A stretch of DNA of 64,000 nucleotides from Vicinamibacterales bacterium (GCA_963761975.1 CAVXIR010000007.1:558965-622964), one strand, 5' to 3'; shown: positions 8,192 to 17,815, counted from the stretch's first letter. Notes: generated from the sequence alone by a model not told the origin. Program-made: numbers and translations.

Positions 8192-8338
8192 TCGCACTAT
8201 TCGCAGATTGTCAGATTCGTAGATTGTCAGATTCGCGAACTGTCAGATTGGAAGAATGACGATTGGAGGATTGCTCGATTGATTGGCCGTCGACATGTAT
8301 TTTCCAATCGCACAATCTGCGAATCTGCGAATCTTCCA
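8192..8338. repeat. imperfect palindrome built from CAGATTG / CAATCTG units
   Basis: Left half ATTCGCAGATTGTCAGATTCG..., right half ..CAATCTGCGAATCTGCGAATC. It fills the intergenic gap. Confidence 0.8.
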
Positions 8339-9547
8339 ATGCTCCGTCTCGTGCTGGCGCTCTTCCTCTGCACGCCGGTCTTTGCTGCTGACTGGCCACA
8401 ATTTCTCGGGCCGGCACGAAACGGCATCTACACCGGCGCGCCGCTGACCGAAAAATGGGCGTCGACGGGCCCGCGCGTCATCTGGCGCAAACAGGTCGGG
8501 CAGGGGCTGAGCGGACCGGTCGTCGCACAGAATCGACTCATTCTGTTTCACCGCGTCGCCGATCGCGAAGTCGTCGAATCGTTCGATGCGCTCACCGGTG
8601 CGCCGCAATGGCGCCACGCCTATCCCACAACGTATCGCGATGATTTCGGGTTCGATGAAGGGCCGCGCGCGGTTGCTGTTGTTAGCGATGGCCGCGTCTA
8701 CACCTATGGAGCGGAAGGCAAGCTGCATGCAGTCGAGCTGGCGACGGGGAAGCCCCTGTGGGACGTCGACGCCATGCGACAGTTCGAAGTGGCGAAGGGA
8801 TTCTTCGGCGCCGCCGGGTCGCCGCTGATCGACGAGGGAAAGGTCATCGCAAACATCGGCGGCAGGAAAGGCGGCATCGTCGCCTTCGATGCGCAAAGCG
8901 GGAAGGCGGTGTGGACGGCGACGGCCGATGCCGCCAGCTATTCCTCCGGAGTGGGCGCCACGATTCTCGGCCGCCGCTACGCGGTGTTTCTGACGCGTGA
9001 AGGGTTGGTCGGACTCGATCCCGCAACAGGGCAGGTTCGCTTTCAGCGCCCGTGGCGTGCACGCCAGGCGGCGTCTGTGAATGCGGCGACGCCGCTCGTG
9101 GTCGGCAACGCGATTTTCGTGTCGGCCGAGTACGGGCCTGGTGCCGGTCTTCTGCAGTTCGATGGCACGAAGCTCGTCGATGTGTGGCTGTCGAACGACG
9201 TACTGTCGAATCACTACGCGACGAGCGTTCATCACGAAGGGCATCTTTACGGCTTTCACGGCCGTCAGGAATTCGGCCCCGTGTTTCGCGCGGTTCATCT
9301 GCAGAGCGGAAAGGTGCTGTGGAGCACCGAGCGATTTGGCGCGGGAAGCGTGACGCTCGCCGGCAATCGTCTGCTGATCGTCCGCGAGACAGGTGAGTTG
9401 ATTCTTGCCGCAGCGTCGCCGAAGTCCTTCCAGACAATCGCGAAGGCGCAGATCGTTCCACCAACCGTTCGCGCCTATCCGGCGCTTGCCGACGGTGTGC
9501 TGTACGTCCGCAACGACGATACGCTGATTGCACTGGATCTTCGATGA
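8339..9547 (+). CDS. PQQ-like beta-propeller repeat protein (BamB-like fold), secreted
   Basis: Signal peptide MLRLVLALFLCTPVFAADWPQFLGP, then repeated G.V(Y/F)...dG.l.A.d..tG...W blades. Confidence 0.85.
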   Translation: MLRLVLALFLCTPVFAADWPQFLGPARNGIYTGAPLTEKWASTGPRVIWRKQVGQGLSGPVVAQNRLILFHRVADREVVESFDALTGAPQWRHAYPTTYRDDFGFDEGPRAVAVVSDGRVYTYGAEGKLHAVELATGKPLWDVDAMRQFEVAKGFFGAAGSPLIDEGKVIANIGGRKGGIVAFDAQSGKAVWTATADAASYSSGVGATILGRRYAVFLTREGLVGLDPATGQVRFQRPWRARQAASVNAATPLVVGNAIFVSAEYGPGAGLLQFDGTKLVDVWLSNDVLSNHYATSVHHEGHLYGFHGRQEFGPVFRAVHLQSGKVLWSTERFGAGSVTLAGNRLLIVRETGELILAAASPKSFQTIAKAQIVPPTVRAYPALADGVLYVRNDDTLIALDLR

Positions 9548-13844: not shown

Positions 13845-13972
13845 GTTTCGGCGAATTCGCGGCCTCGCTCCTCTTCGGGTTTCTGTCAGTTCTGCTTCCG
13901 CTCGTCATCTTCATCGCGATCGTGGCCGGCTGCGTTTATGTAGCTCGCTGGTGGATCACGCGGAAGAGCTGA
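13841..13972 (+). CDS. possible 43-aa single-pass membrane peptide coupled to ppa
   Basis: GTGA start/stop overlap with ppa. Hydrophobic core [25 protein letters not shown]. Not in the ORF track because it is shorter than 60 aa. Confidence 0.3.
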
Positions 13973-14278
13973 TCGACAAGCATCTCGACGCAGAGGCAGA
14001 AAAATCAGGTAGTGGGTCAGTTTGCCCGACTATGCATCTAAAAGGCAGGTAGTGTCTCAATTAGGCTGAGTGCTCGGCGCTCACGTTGAGAGCCGGAACC
14101 GGAGCCTCCGCGCGCTCGATCATCGCCACCACGTCGGCCATGTCCCACACGCGCTCGCTGAGCGAACTGCCTGACGCCCTGCGTGCGCACGTCGAAACCC
14201 TCCGCGCGAACCAACGTAACAATGGCAACCAAATTATTCAGATTTTATTCACGCACATCGCAAAGTGCTGACGATGAA

Positions 14279-14527
14279 TCACTTACCGTGACGAGCCTGA
14301 GCCGCATCTCTGGCTATCTGTGAGCGTCGTTTGGGCGACAGGCTAGCGGCTCGCGCGATTCCACCTCGTCTACCCAGCTCTACCGCTGCTTTACTCTTCC
14401 CGTCCTTGGTCAGCGACTCGTCGATTTCGCCAGTGGCGATCTTCATGACGTGGACGGCGTTCGATACGACGTCAGCGGGGCGCTTGTGTCCCTTGGGGGT
14501 TCTCGGCATATACTTACCGCTAAGCAT
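14279..14527 (-). CDS. small basic protein with C-terminal GG-x-ARA..LSP..R..IA..AA.AR module (82 aa)
   Basis: ..AAVELGRRGGIARAASLSPKRRSQIARDAAQARHGK. Paralogous to the 17339..17596 product. Confidence 0.6.
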   Translation of the reverse strand: MLSGKYMPRTPKGHKRPADVVSNAVHVMKIATGEIDESLTKDGKSKAAVELGRRGGIARAASLSPKRRSQIARDAAQARHGK

Positions 14528-14610
14528 AGCACGGTCACCCTTAACGCTGCGTCAGGATGCCCGAGACTTTACCAAGACTCGTCCGACCAACAGATAAAAG
14601 GAGCCCGTCG

Positions 14611-14973
14611 ATGCACGAAAGCAAGGACAACCTGCCAGTTCTACTCGATGCACCCGGTGCGACCCTCCGCGCGGTTCGAGGGGGTGAGATGACGGTCGGC
14701 TATGCAAAGTGCGCCGCAGGCACAGATTTTACGCCAGTCCTCAAGGGTCTCGAGGACGACATGTGCCAGTGCCCTCATTGGGGCTATGTTCTCAAGGGTG
14801 CGCTCCACCTGCGGTACACCGATGGCCGTGAGGAGACCGTTCGGGCTGGCGAGGTGTGGTACGCGGCACCAGGCCACACAGCGTGGTGCGACGAAGATAC
14901 GGAATACATCGACGTCAACCCGTCGCAAGACTTCGCACACGTAATCGATCACATAAGGAAGCAGATGCCGTAG
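14611..14973 (+). CDS. cupin-domain protein (120 aa)
   Basis: AAGGAG RBS 7 nt before the ATG at 14611. HWGYVLKG.....G......GE.WY..PGH is a cupin-like pattern. Confidence 0.65.
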   Translation: MHESKDNLPVLLDAPGATLRAVRGGEMTVGYAKCAAGTDFTPVLKGLEDDMCQCPHWGYVLKGALHLRYTDGREETVRAGEVWYAAPGHTAWCDEDTEYIDVNPSQDFAHVIDHIRKQMP

Positions 14974-15112
14974 ATGCAGGGCTGACGAAACAAGCGGCGT
15001 CCGGGTCGCTGAAGGCTGAGCACACCGCACTCAATCAGACTGTGACACTACCAAAAGGCAAAGTAGCTTGCCTACTCAAGCCGGGTGTATAGATCCTACA
15101 CAGGAGGCTCCA

Positions 15113-15391
15113 ATGAGACTAGTGATCATACGGATGGCTGCGGCGGCTGGTTTGATTGCGCTTGGTTGGACTGCAGGCCGGGCGGCTCAAGCGCCCCAAG
15201 CGGACTTCGAGATCGCGATCGCGTCTCCAGCCGGTACCACGACCGTCACCTGTACGCGCGGTTGTGGATTGCAGTTCATCCGAATGACGCCCGACAAGTC
15301 GAAGGCTGAGCGGTCCTTCACGTATACCTGTGGCGGCGGTGGCAATGCACCCAACTGCGGTGGATCCGCCCAGGGCTGGGTGATCCGGTAG
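15113..15391 (+). CDS. small secreted Cys/Gly-rich hypothetical protein (92 aa)
   Basis: AGGAGG RBS and signal peptide MRLVIIRMAAAAGLIALGWTAGRAAQA. Confidence 0.5.
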   Translation: MRLVIIRMAAAAGLIALGWTAGRAAQAPQADFEIAIASPAGTTTVTCTRGCGLQFIRMTPDKSKAERSFTYTCGGGGNAPNCGGSAQGWVIR

Positions 15392-15397
15392 GTTGCG

Positions 15398-16228
15398 CTA
15401 GTTCAGAAGTCCGACAATCTCCTCAACACTCCACACGTGATCGCTAACACCGGCCTCCATCGCTGGCGTCACTCGCAGCGTTTGATGGACGCGGGCGAAG
15501 TTGTAATACATGAAGTAGAGGGCCACCATCGCCGCATGATTCTCGATTTTCTTGCTGAACGCGTTTGTTAGACGCGTGAAACGTCGCATAGACATCCGCA
15601 TCGTGAGGTTCTGGCGCTCAACGAAAGACGTCGAGATGTGTTTCGGATCAGGCGTCCCGTTAACCTCGGTCCGCTTGCAGCCGACGCACACGGGCGGGCT
15701 ATACCGACCACCGCCGCTACCAGCGTTCGCGTAAATCTTATGGAGTTGGGCGTAGTCGATCTCGGTGCCGAACGCGAGATCTATGGCGTTCAGATAGACA
15801 CTGTGACCGTCTGTCGTCAGTTGCACCCGGTTCGCAAGCCGTGACGCCACGTCGTGCATGAAGACGCTCCCGGTTTCAAATGAGCGGTCGCCAATCTGGA
15901 AACTGATGATGAGCTTCGCGTCCGCGTCTATCGCGGTCCACGTCCAGATATCGCCCCATCCCGCCGCCCTTGTCTCTGGCGTCGTGTTCTTTTCCTTGGC
16001 GCCAACGAACGACCAAATTTCATCGCATTGAACGCGCTTCGTAGACAGGTTCCGGATGGCGTCGTTCTGGAATTTCGAGCACGCATCGCCGAGATCTGCG
16101 AGCAGCTTGACGATAGTGTTCTTGGACGCGCCAGTCATCCGCACCGTGGACCGGATGCTGCTGCCCTCAACCAGCGCCCTCATGACCGCCGCTCGCCGTG
16201 CCGTGCTCATCTGATTCATACTGACCAT
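15398..16228 (-). CDS. IS1-family DDE transposase, single ORF (276 aa)
   Basis: N-terminal HTH (LVEGSSIRSTVRMTGASKNTIVKLL), then VQCDEIWSFV, TWTAIDADAKLI, LTTDGHSVY and SFVERQNLTMRMSMRRFTRLTNAFSKK. I recognise these as the IS1/ISMhu11-type transposase core. Confidence 0.88.
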   Translation of the reverse strand: MVSMNQMSTARRAAVMRALVEGSSIRSTVRMTGASKNTIVKLLADLGDACSKFQNDAIRNLSTKRVQCDEIWSFVGAKEKNTTPETRAAGWGDIWTWTAIDADAKLIISFQIGDRSFETGSVFMHDVASRLANRVQLTTDGHSVYLNAIDLAFGTEIDYAQLHKIYANAGSGGGRYSPPVCVGCKRTEVNGTPDPKHISTSFVERQNLTMRMSMRRFTRLTNAFSKKIENHAAMVALYFMYYNFARVHQTLRVTPAMEAGVSDHVWSVEEIVGLLN

Positions 16229-16307
16229 TATGCTTGAACGCCTTTGTATGTCGACCGTGCCTACCCCTACGCATTTGTGGTAGTATCTTACTGCATAGGG
16301 GGTATGG

Positions 16308-17342
16308 ATGGCAGACGAGAAGCCGAAAACGGCCGCCGAGTTCGGGTCGGAAGGCGGTAAGAAGCGCGCCCAGCGGTTGACGCCAGATCAGCGCCGAGAC
16401 ATCTCCAGGCGCGCGGCAGAAGCCCGATGGGGCGCTCAGGGTCGTCTGAAGGTGCTGCGCGCCACGCACGAAGGGGCACTGACGATTGCTGGCGTCGTCA
16501 TCCCCGCTGCTGTGTTGGAGGACGGGACGCGGGTGCTTTCGCGTGCAGGCTTTCTAAAGGCGATCGGACGTACGGGGAAGGCGAAAGGCGGCAGACGCTA
16601 CGACGTTGAATCCAAAGTGCCTGTTTTCTTGACCGCTGAGAACCTTAAACCCTTTATTCCTGACGACTTAGTTGCTAATTCCAACCCGGTTCCTTTTCGG
16701 CCTCTTTCTGGAGCTTCGCTCGGTCTAGCGATGGGCTACAGGTACCAGCTCCTCCCTCAGGTTTGCCATGTGTTCATGGACGCGAAGGAAGCTGACGCGC
16801 TTCGCGCCAATCAGTTGCACATCGCTGAACAGTGCCGGATTCTGAGCCGGGGGTTCTCGATTGTCGGTTTGGCGGCGCTCATCGATGAGGCTACCGGCTA
16901 TCAGAACGTCACGGATCGAGAAAAGCTCGAATCAATTCTAAATACATACCTGGGTAAGGAATTGGCCGCATGGGCAAAGCGTTTCCCTGATGAGTTCTAC
17001 CGCCAGATCTTCCGCCTTCGTGGATGGCCTTGGGTAGGACGGACCAAGAACCCGCCCCAGATTGTGGGCAAGTACACGGACATCATCGTCTACCAACGCC
17101 TGGCGCCGTCCTTGGTCGAAACGCTGCGCCGCCTGAACCCGAAAGACGAAAAGGGAAACAGGCCCCATAAACGCCACCAGTACCTAAGCGCCGACGTGGG
17201 GCATCCCGCACTGGCTCAGCACGTTCATGCGACGACTGCAATTATGCGGACCTGCAAGACGTGGCCGGAGTTCCTAGGACGGCTGAAGATGGCCTTCCCG
17301 AAGGAGACCTCGGCGGATTGGTTGCCCTTCGGCGAAGACTAG
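16308..17342 (+). CDS. P63C-domain protein with N-terminal GG-K-KRA..LTP..R..IS..AA.ARW module (344 aa)
   Basis: Central and C-terminal pattern IDEATGYQ.., FPDEFYRQIFRLRGWPW.., VYQRLAP.., NPKDEKGNR.HKRHQYL matches what I remember of the P63C (phage-derived) domain. Confidence 0.7.
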   Translation: MADEKPKTAAEFGSEGGKKRAQRLTPDQRRDISRRAAEARWGAQGRLKVLRATHEGALTIAGVVIPAAVLEDGTRVLSRAGFLKAIGRTGKAKGGRRYDVESKVPVFLTAENLKPFIPDDLVANSNPVPFRPLSGASLGLAMGYRYQLLPQVCHVFMDAKEADALRANQLHIAEQCRILSRGFSIVGLAALIDEATGYQNVTDREKLESILNTYLGKELAAWAKRFPDEFYRQIFRLRGWPWVGRTKNPPQIVGKYTDIIVYQRLAPSLVETLRRLNPKDEKGNRPHKRHQYLSADVGHPALAQHVHATTAIMRTCKTWPEFLGRLKMAFPKETSADWLPFGED

Positions 17343-17596
17343 CGCCAGCGTGCTTCAGCCGCTTTCCGGGCGATAGCCTTGCGCTTCGCGGGACTGAGCG
17401 CCTTCGCTCGCGCCTTCCCGCCCTTGGACCCTCCGAGCTTCCCTAAAGCTACGGCAGCCGGGTTCTTGCCTTCGTTCGGAGGATCAGGCAGGGGCGAGCC
17501 GTCCAGTTTCTCGCCGATAGCTTGCTCGACGACTTTGCGCGCGATTACCGTAAAATCGTGTGGCGTGCCGCTTTTCTTGCTTGAGCGCCTAGGCAT
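17339..17596 (-). CDS. small basic protein with C-terminal GG-K-ARA..LSP..R..IA..AA.ARW module (85 aa)
   Basis: ..AAVALGKLGGSKGGKARAKALSPAKRKAIARKAAEARWR. Its 3' end overlaps the stop of the P63C gene by 4 nt, in convergent orientation. Confidence 0.6.
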   Translation of the reverse strand: MPRRSSKKSGTPHDFTVIARKVVEQAIGEKLDGSPLPDPPNEGKNPAAVALGKLGGSKGGKARAKALSPAKRKAIARKAAEARWR

Positions 17597-17815
17597 ACCT
17601 CATTCTTACACAAGGAACTGTCATTTTCTGGCGGGCTGGATTCAAACTGACCCACTACCAAAAATCAGCCTCTCTTGTATTCGTGCCTCTTCGTGTTCCT
17701 GTGTGGGCCGCGTCCGCGGCCCGCGAAGTCGATGCCGCCGGTAAAATTCTGCCTCCTGATCTCCTGAGCTCCTGTTTTTGAAAGTCTCTGAGCGTCCGCG
17801 TCACTGCGTCAACGC

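Follow-up and report, generated by a model that had tools for sequence, protein, structure and literature searches.

A probable pair of nested IS1-family elements in a Vicinamibacterales genome

The segment between positions 14008 and 17659 of a 64-kb stretch of DNA from the Vicinamibacterales bacterium GCA_963761975.1 (the window, in which all coordinates are counted) very probably consists of two related insertion sequences (ISs) of the IS1 family, one inside the other; we put the probability at about 0.88. The host would be an autonomous transporter IS (tIS), the term for an IS-like element with passenger genes between its inverted repeats (PMC7986276, PMC9330008). An earlier note on this DNA had described the same segment as a single transposon with five cargo genes.

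The outer insertion and the element inside it

The outer boundaries are marked by four features:
14000–14007, no strand: outer target site duplication (TSD), copy 1, AAAAATCA; the same 8-mer abuts both outer tips
14008–14024, plus strand: outer terminal inverted repeat (TIR), transposase-proximal end (IRR by IS convention), GGTAGTGGGTCAGTTTG; 100% complementary to 17643–17659
17643–17659, minus strand: outer TIR at the end proximal to a small basic protein gene, sb (IRL by IS convention); 19 of 19 positions as in the family consensus
17660–17667, no strand: outer TSD, copy 2, AAAAATCA, the identical 8-mer

The segment is a genuine insertion, and its ends are correctly delimited. The perfect 17-bp TIRs, the 8-bp duplication abutting both ends and the open reading frames (ORFs) named in the earlier note are all present. 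A repeat finder returns arms of 17 nt that are 100% complementary, and the junctions read ...GCAGAGGCAG AAAAATCA then GGTAGTGGGTCAGTTTG... on the left (14000–14024) and ...CAAACTGACCCACTACC then AAAAATCA GCCTCTC... on the right (17643–17667). Of the 19 positions of the family consensus, GGTAGTGGGTCAGTTTGAA, 17 are shared by the repeat at 14008–14024. The 17-mer occurs at only two sites in the 64 kb even when three mismatches are tolerated (0.10 expected), a number that none of 100 shuffles reaches. Base composition predicts 0.044 perfect 17-bp inverted pairs within 5 kb per window, and 1e-6 per window if such a pair must also be abutted by an 8-bp direct repeat. The identical nested structure is found in an independent assembly (L081; ENA ERZ25039586 contig_8226), which differs from the window over 13900–17800 by one single-nucleotide polymorphism (SNP; 16741) and one 1-nt indel (after 17182), so the insertion is not an assembly artefact. 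The AT-richness that had been judged by eye is marginal: the GC content is 58.6% between the outer TIRs, 61.5% in the window, and 61.3 and 61.9% in the 5-kb flanks.

The tip sequence GGTAGTGNNNCA is found four times in the window, where 0.15 occurrences are expected, at 14008 (plus), 14048 (plus), 15052 (minus) and 17659 (minus). The four tips thus run plus, plus, minus, minus, and they are accompanied by two independent 8-bp repeats. The inner pair forms a 36-nt inverted repeat with 72% complementarity (repeat finder), and the recurrence of AAAAGGCA at that fixed pair of positions has a probability of P = 2.3e-5. The inner features are:
14040–14047, no strand: TSD of the nested element, copy 1, AAAAGGCA; same 8-mer at 15053–15060, the target lying 32 bp inside the outer end
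14048–15052, no strand: nested non-autonomous element, 1,005 bp, with tips GGTAGTGTCTCA (14048–14059) and TGTGACACTACC (15041–15052)
14279–14527, minus strand: sbB, small basic protein of the nested element, 82 aa, 18 Lys + Arg versus 7 Asp + Glu; full-length match to the sb profile, E = 5e-23
14611–14973, plus strand: cupin-domain protein of 120 aa, carried as cargo by the nested element; Cupin_2 matches weakly (23.9 bits, below cut-off)
15053–15060, no strand: TSD of the nested element, copy 2, AAAAGGCA; same 8-mer at 14040–14047

No homology to transposases was found inside 14048–15052. Two metagenome contigs carry what appear to be copies of the same element. In one (L163), the first 110 nt of the nested element are matched at 100% and the last 706 nt at 93% identity, within an element of 1,794 bp that holds a degenerate transposase 41% identical to that of the window. 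The other (L162) contains the right 680 nt at 90% identity. Both copies have the ends, sb and cupin in gene neighbourhoods unrelated to that of the window, and cupin homologues with 95% identity adjoin the same tip in both. SbB is 81% identical to its L163 counterpart and 47–51% identical to SbA, the corresponding protein of the outer element. These copies indicate that the nested element is an independent mobile unit. It has the family TIRs and a TSD, lacks a transposase and has a formerly autonomous relative in L163, as is typical of non-autonomous IS derivatives. Because L163 keeps the ends together with a degenerate transposase of only 41% identity, the nested element appears to derive by deletion from a different IS species of the same clade. 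Like miniature inverted-repeat transposable elements (MITEs) and other deletion derivatives of ISs, it keeps the tips and makes an 8-bp TSD without a transposase, but it is larger than a typical MITE and retains sbB and the cupin gene.

When the nested element and one copy of its repeat are removed, a host of 2,639 bp is left, which lies inside the family range of 1.8–4.7 kb and thereby supports the nesting. Read in the orientation of the transposase, the host consists of a TIR (17659), sbA, a P63C gene on the opposite strand, the transposase, a gene for a 92-aa protein, and the second TIR (14008):
15113–15391, plus strand: small protein, 92 aa, four Cys, outer-element cargo downstream of the transposase; ORF, with a gene call in L081
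15398–16228, minus strand: single-ORF IS1-family DDE transposase, 276 aa, D69/D140/E204; PF03400 38.5 bits (cut-off 24.1)
16308–17342, plus strand: P63C-domain protein, 344 aa, outer-element cargo, divergent from the transposase; PF10546 109 bits, phrog_2384 347 bits over the full length
17339–17596, minus strand: sbA, small basic protein of the outer element, 85 aa, 20 Lys + Arg versus 7 Asp + Glu; sb profile E = 1e-38, ATG 63 nt inside the tip

The claim that passenger genes lie inside the TIRs and that the segment looks intact therefore stands for the P63C and small secreted protein genes, and the ORFs, TIRs and TSDs are whole.

In the proposed sequence of events, the host would have inserted between a gene for a 43-aa membrane protein (downstream of a pyrophosphatase gene) and an AAA-ATPase gene, duplicating AAAAATCA. 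The derivative carrying sbB and cupin would then have entered 32 bp inside the transposase-proximal end of the host, duplicating AAAAGGCA. Alternatively, the nesting may have preceded the last move of the host. Since the 17-bp TIRs of the host are untouched, the whole 3,652 bp should still be movable as one unit. The transposase would bind the ~19-bp TIRs, cleave the 3' ends and join them to target phosphates staggered by 8 bp, a mechanism inferred from established IS1 and other DDE enzymes.

Insertion site and competing explanations

A scan of metagenome contigs with the flanking AAA ATPase yielded only two, L085 and L082, in which the AAA-ATPase, 43-aa and pyrophosphatase genes have retained their synteny. 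In both, the three genes are contiguous and there is no element; protein identity is 81–87% for the AAA ATPase and 95% for the pyrophosphatase. The search for an empty site in related genomes, which the earlier note had proposed, thus yielded synteny without the element but not the exact nucleotide site, and an empty site appears to be supported at the level of synteny only. The restored target without the element reads ...GCAGAGGCAGAAAAATCAGCCTCTC.... The flanking intergenic DNA (~190 nt; 13973–14007 and 17668–17815) has no counterpart in L085 and L082, where only a few nucleotides separate the 43-aa gene from the AAA-ATPase gene, and the target may lie in lineage-specific DNA. A 6-bp hairpin at the restored target (AGAGGC...GCCTCT) was considered and rejected, being no better than shuffles (z = −0.78). 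Rfam and tRNA scans of 12–20 kb found nothing; with no tRNA gene or Rfam family there, this is not a tRNA-targeted island.

Several results weigh against the nested-pair interpretation or some part of it. No nucleotide-level empty site was found for the outer insertion, as the intergenic DNA of L085 and L082 does not align, nor for the nested one, as L166, L167 and L170, the closest relatives, have non-homologous sequence after the transposase. The L163 element has no matching 8-bp flanking repeat. A second recent copy of the outer element has not come to light, and among the matches listed the next transposase is 77% identical. The transposase also scores 69.1 bits against the IS1 equivalog model NF033558 of NCBIfam, below the cut-off of 100, with residues 7–149 aligned to profile positions 40–167.

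The usual marks of an active element (near-identical copies elsewhere, an empty site, excision) were not found. To call it possibly active, as had been suggested, is nevertheless fair given the intact ORFs, TIRs and TSDs, although current transposition is unproven. The insertion could instead be a real one that is now inactive, domesticated or decaying, its perfect repeats reflecting a short time since insertion, and this is possible but rather unlikely. The element is present as a single copy in the window and has no relative above 77% identity among the matches listed, a foreign element 32 bp from one end could disturb subterminal functions, and relatives in decay are known, their transposase being truncated in L170 and degenerate in L163. 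Against such a fossil, the transposase ORF has its full length and retains D69, D140, E204 and every conserved block, the TIRs and TSD are perfect, sbA and the P63C gene are intact, and the two assemblies differ at only two positions across the element.

It is very improbable that the segment is one 3.65-kb IS1-family transposon in which all five extra genes are cargo and the tip at 14048 serves as an internal, second transposase-binding site. The outer TIRs and TSD do enclose all of the genes and, if nesting preceded the last transposition, all 3,652 bp moved together. However, the tip at 14048 is matched by an inverted copy at 15052, which the earlier note had overlooked, and a perfect 8-bp direct repeat bounds the two; the same ends with sb and cupin are found in other genomic contexts (L162, L163); an internal tip repeat at +40 is not a regular feature of any other family member; and sb is a core gene rather than cargo. 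The tip at 14048 is better read as the end of the nested 1,005-bp relative, with its partner at 15041–15052 and its own TSD, and sbB and cupin as genes of that relative.

Coincidental repeats among ordinary chromosomal genes, in favour of which there is nothing but the missing exact empty site, are refuted by the chance expectation of 1e-6, by the same 19-bp ends bracketing homologous transposases at no fewer than 60 independent loci, each with a different 8-bp repeat, and by syntenic relatives without the segment.

The transposase and its family

The host of the nested pair encodes the only copy of the transposase in the window. The identical protein is found on two contigs, and in the readable one (L081) it is at the same locus; the closest other transposase among the matches listed, from at least 8,000 homologues in the protein database, is 77% identical. 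The match to PF03400 (DDE_Tnp_IS1) is partial, covering residues 198–240, and passes the gathering score of 24.1. To compare it with the canonical enzyme, IS1A InsAB' was reconstructed from an E. coli copy (L168), and the transposase was aligned by MAFFT with InsAB' and 25 family members. The D69 block reads CDEIW here and MDEQW in IS1A, the D140 block TTDGH and MTDGW, and the E204 block VERQNLTMR and IERHNLNLR, followed in both by FSK. The helix-turn-helix (HTH) upstream of the catalytic blocks is kept, as in the InsAB' alignment. Relatives aligning over the full length are named “IS1 family transposase” by JGI (with precomputed PF03400), and PGAP gives the same name to plasmid homologues. 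The earlier view that such elements are rarely annotated consequently applies to their boundaries and accessory gene, which are unannotated, but not to the transposase.

IS1 elements have GGnnnTG tips and target duplications of 8–9 bp. The tip is GGTAGTG here and in at least 60 relatives and GGTGATG in IS1A, as the tip rule invoked in the earlier note requires. The 8-bp TSD is found twice in the window, exactly in 56 of 60 relatives, and in four further elements. An assignment to IS1595 was rejected since a Pfam scan at E ≤ 0.01 gave PF03400 only and matched no IS1595-type domain; IS6 was rejected on model scores. With PF03400 passed and the catalytic residues aligned, the single-ORF IS1-family transposase of the earlier note is upheld, as a protein that appears to be not canonical but a distant branch, and the elements are accordingly best placed in the IS1 family as a distant single-ORF branch.

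The clade shares with IS1 (IS1A, E. coli) the DDE blocks (xDExW, TDG and ERxNLxxR...FSK) with the upstream HTH, the GGnnnTG tip, and a gene for a small basic protein near one end: insA at +56 in L168, sb at +64 here. The differences are substantial. IS1 is 768 bp long and has no cargo, whereas the elements described here are 1.8–4.7 kb and carry it. IS1 joins insA and insB' by a −1 frameshift, whereas the transposase here is a single ORF; it lacks the InsA zinc finger, the alignment beginning after the Cys-x2-Cys...Cys-x2-Cys, carries ~30 inserted residues between its second D and its E, and is extended at the C-terminus by YNFxRxHxxLxxTPA (YNFARVHQTLRVTPAME). The sb protein has no Cys and no detectable similarity to InsA. 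Elements of ~900–4,600 bp, implying passenger genes, are listed for the ISMhu11 subgroup in the ISfinder family table, a range with which the 1.8–4.7 kb of the present elements would be compatible; a literature search for ISMhu11 found nothing. ISAba3 has been cited as another member of the IS1 family (PMC9330008).

A promoter-like TCGACA-16-CATAAT (10 of 12 matches; 16227–16254, minus strand) runs up to the first ATG of the transposase ORF. In homologues the alignment begins at residue 4, and translation may actually start at M4 or M7, possibly with a leader that is very short or absent. A generic promoter and terminator scan of the element gave counts no higher than shuffles, with one good promoter-like site overlapping the transposase start.

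In a genome scan with one genome per species, at least 592 relatives of the transposase with GGTAGTGGGTCAGTTTGAA ends were found. The best 80 of these are 57–68% identical and come mostly from metagenome-assembled genomes of Acidobacteriota, Verrucomicrobiota, Nitrospirota and other phyla. At the 60 loci with both ends in view, the tips correspond to GGTAGTGGGTCAGTTTGAA and the lengths range from 1.8 to 4.7 kb; the flanking repeats are exact 8-bp duplications in 56 and match at 7 of 8 positions in the other four, and their sequences are all different. The other copies with the same ends and different duplications that the earlier note had asked for thus exist, in other genomes. The two closest relatives (76–77% transposase identity) are complete elements of 3,600 and 3,007 bp with the TSDs GGCTTTCC and TAAACGCT, and their cargo consists of an nSTAND NTPase and a Fic protein. 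Complete copies are also present on plasmids of cultured bacteria, Acidiphilium multivorum (2,634 bp, TSD AAGCCGAG) and Mesorhizobium loti (3,370 bp, TSD CGCTGGTG).

Positions 8–11 of the TIR vary within the family (GGTC, GTAC, GTGC, TCTC, ACTC and others) and are the same at both ends in 56 of 61 elements. The host is of the “GGTC” type and the nested element of the “TCTC/TCAC” type, so that the nested element is not necessarily movable by the host transposase.

The tIS described so far include passenger-carrying members of the IS1595 family (Siguier, Gagnevin & Chandler 2009, as cited in PMC7986276). The likeness to these lies in a single transposase, TIRs, an 8-bp TSD and passenger genes unrelated to transposition: the P63C and small secreted protein genes within the outer TIRs of the window, and HTH/M78, methyltransferase, Fic and nSTAND genes in the same slot of relatives. 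The transposase domain and tips differ from those of IS1595, and here a conserved non-transposase gene, sb, accompanies the variable cargo. The insertion in the window is thus of a type already known, an ordinary IS1-family tIS with a smaller relative nested in it; the novelty is at the level of the family, in its unannotated core gene and variable cargo slot. A literature search on IS1, cargo and defence found no description of the clade.

Three loci show unusual arrangements. At L033:4788–9480, three tips abut, each separated by TGGATTTC, in the order ...CACTACC, TGGATTTC, a 129-bp MITE with GC-rich hairpins (4804–4932), TGGATTTC, an IS of 4,532 bp (4941–9472) and TGGATTTC. This suggests repeated insertion at one target or insertion beside an existing end, and the 129-bp element demonstrates that true MITEs of the family exist. 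In L069 (5300–5340 and 7700–7725), two consensus tips lie head to head, 8 bp apart (CACTACC CCTTATGA GGTAGTG), and the 8-mer at the far end, CCATAAGG, agrees at 7 of 8 positions with the junction 8-mer read on the opposite strand; the arrangement recalls the junctions of IS dimers or circles, or an inversion between copies. On the A. multivorum plasmid (L164:5383–6221), a pair of RES toxin and Xre/MbcA antitoxin genes is located directly outside the transposase-side end, and the element, which ends at 5400, overlaps the beginning of the RES gene region. Either the insertion went into or beside a toxin–antitoxin locus, or the boundary is mis-set.

The small basic protein and the cargo slot

The small basic proteins were counted as cargo in the earlier note, but a profile built from SbA homologues matches 58 of 61 elements, and in about 47 of them sb starts at nt 64–98 from the transposase-distal tip, on the transposase strand. 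When sb homologues are chosen regardless of context, the same IS architecture is found around them. The distances of sb and transposase are correlated (Mantel r = 0.35, a value reached in 0 of 2000 permutations), and the closest SbA homologue is 86% identical, compared with 77% for the transposase (among the matches listed). From these patterns sb appears to be a conserved core gene of the IS clade rather than cargo.

The sb proteins are ~75–100 aa long, with a conserved N-terminal helix (RDxNQLAxxIVxxATG) and a conserved C-terminal motif (GGxARAxxLSxxxRxxIAxKAAxARW). There are 3,900 homologues in 90%-identity clusters, all of them unnamed or “hypothetical”, and 9,747 representative clusters at E ≤ 1e-3. 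No family for sb is present in Pfam or NCBIfam; from Pfam there is only a KGG motif at E = 0.59 in one of 40 members, and sb is unannotated in every library examined.

The region between sbA and its tip is a candidate control region:
17597–17642, minus strand: subterminal region with a putative sbA promoter; extended −10-like TGTAAGAAT (~17602–17610), 5 nt before the ATG

The window sequence reads TGTAAGAAT-GAGGT-ATG. Across the family, sb-side ends share two motifs, one of them TTGAC-like, around +31, and the other a −10-like hexamer, around +53, from which the ATG is 6–7 nt away; this promoter-like pattern is conserved at sb-side ends but not at transposase-side ends. The arrangement suggests a promoter abutting the TIR and a leaderless sbA mRNA. 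A tentative proposal is that sb, expressed in this way, acts as an end-proximal regulator or DNA-binding cofactor. It resembles InsA in position, size and charge, though not in sequence. Several points speak against such a role: the sb profile retrieved only noise from the PDB sequences (T4 lysozyme, E = 0.55), the AlphaFold model is poor (pLDDT 61, pTM 0.34), the region upstream of sbA was not scored by the generic promoter scan, and the role is deduced from position and conservation only. Equally speculative is a broader picture in which sb is an undescribed core component of a very large IS1-related clade, a regulator or cofactor that replaced InsA, and the clade a dedicated shuttle whose hypervariable slot carries toxin–antitoxin, defence and regulatory genes among soil bacteria (Acidobacteriota, Verrucomicrobiota, Nitrospirota and Alphaproteobacteria). 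In this picture sb is retained by non-autonomous derivatives, and variants exchange its DNA-binding half for a zinc finger but preserve the “DxNQxAAxIV” helix. Should sb control transposition, the task that InsA performs in IS1 would have been solved a second time, by a non-homologous protein.

Variable genes fill the interval that separates sb from the transposase, as a rule on the other strand, and in some elements they follow the transposase. Thousands of elements make up the family, and since their 19-bp ends are near-identical and their 8-bp duplications strict, boundaries are easily called and the cargo can be catalogued exactly. Such a catalogue includes IrrE/M78–HTH pairs, PD-Lambda-2-like genes, methyltransferases, Fic, AbiEii-like, RmrA, toxSAS-like genes and P63C. 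In 60 elements, a Pfam census of the 137 ORFs with 110 aa or more gave HTH_3 (14), HTH_31 (9), Peptidase_M78 (7), P63C (5), N6_N4 methyltransferase (4), Proteasome-like (3), Fic, AAA_21/AbiEii, Gp49 and Mrr_cat (2 each), RelA_SpoT and SocA_Panacea (1 each) and others. In PADLOC, the family cargo matched PD-Lambda-2_B (8), methyltransferases (4) and RmrA (3). By these counts, the slot is hypervariable and often holds toxin–antitoxin-, defence- or regulator-like genes.

Tn7-like transposons are known to carry defence and toxin–antitoxin cargo (Benler et al. 2021, PMC8649781), and the clade resembles them in combining a conserved transposition core with a hypervariable slot and defence-like cargo, represented here by HTH with M78 peptidase (PD-Lambda-2_B), methyltransferases, Fic, AbiEii-like, RmrA, RelA_SpoT and Panacea. 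The machinery is unrelated, one DDE protein instead of TnsABC(D/E), and the elements are far smaller, usually with one to three cargo genes.

The cargo of the window itself had no match in PADLOC. The P63C gene has counterparts in the same slot of five other elements. In the independent assembly (L081), the SNP at 16741 is G/A, and an extra C after 17182 yields a P63C product of 379 aa instead of 344; this is probably a frameshift error or a variant, since the window version matches phrog_2384 over its full length. The 92-aa protein belongs to no family in Pfam, NCBIfam, PHROGs or PADLOC, and its N-terminal segment, ending in AAQA, suggests a signal peptide when judged by eye. For the cupin of the nested element, a 91% identical domain is found in P0243 (JGI 3300071325), fused to an N-terminal MerR HTH in a protein of 205 aa encoded near arsenic-resistance genes (ArsA, ArsD, ArsR-like), and the cupin cargo may represent the part of a regulator that binds the ligand.

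The motifs of sb also occur outside of it. In four elements (L023, L052, L059 and L073), the first ORF, at about nt 56–66 from the tip, encodes a Cys/His zinc-finger-like protein instead of sb. This replacement ends in the N-terminal helix of sb (...EDVNQAAARIVREAT; “DxNQxAAxIV”), and the shared helix may be the part that matters for the IS. The C-terminal motif (GGxxRAxxLxxxxRxxIxxxAAxARW) is also the N-terminus of the P63C protein and of the phage family phrog_2384 (positions 7–37); the corresponding stretches in the window are 16308–16430, 17339–17430 and 14279–14370. It looks like a portable mini-domain common to IS and phage proteins.

For annotation, small genes called “hypothetical” or “histone H1” beside an “IS1 family transposase” form one mobile unit with it. 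The latter name is given in GenBank to the sb homologue within the complete 3,370-bp element of Mesorhizobium loti (CP050295; L165:2575–2784), probably as a composition-driven misnomer.

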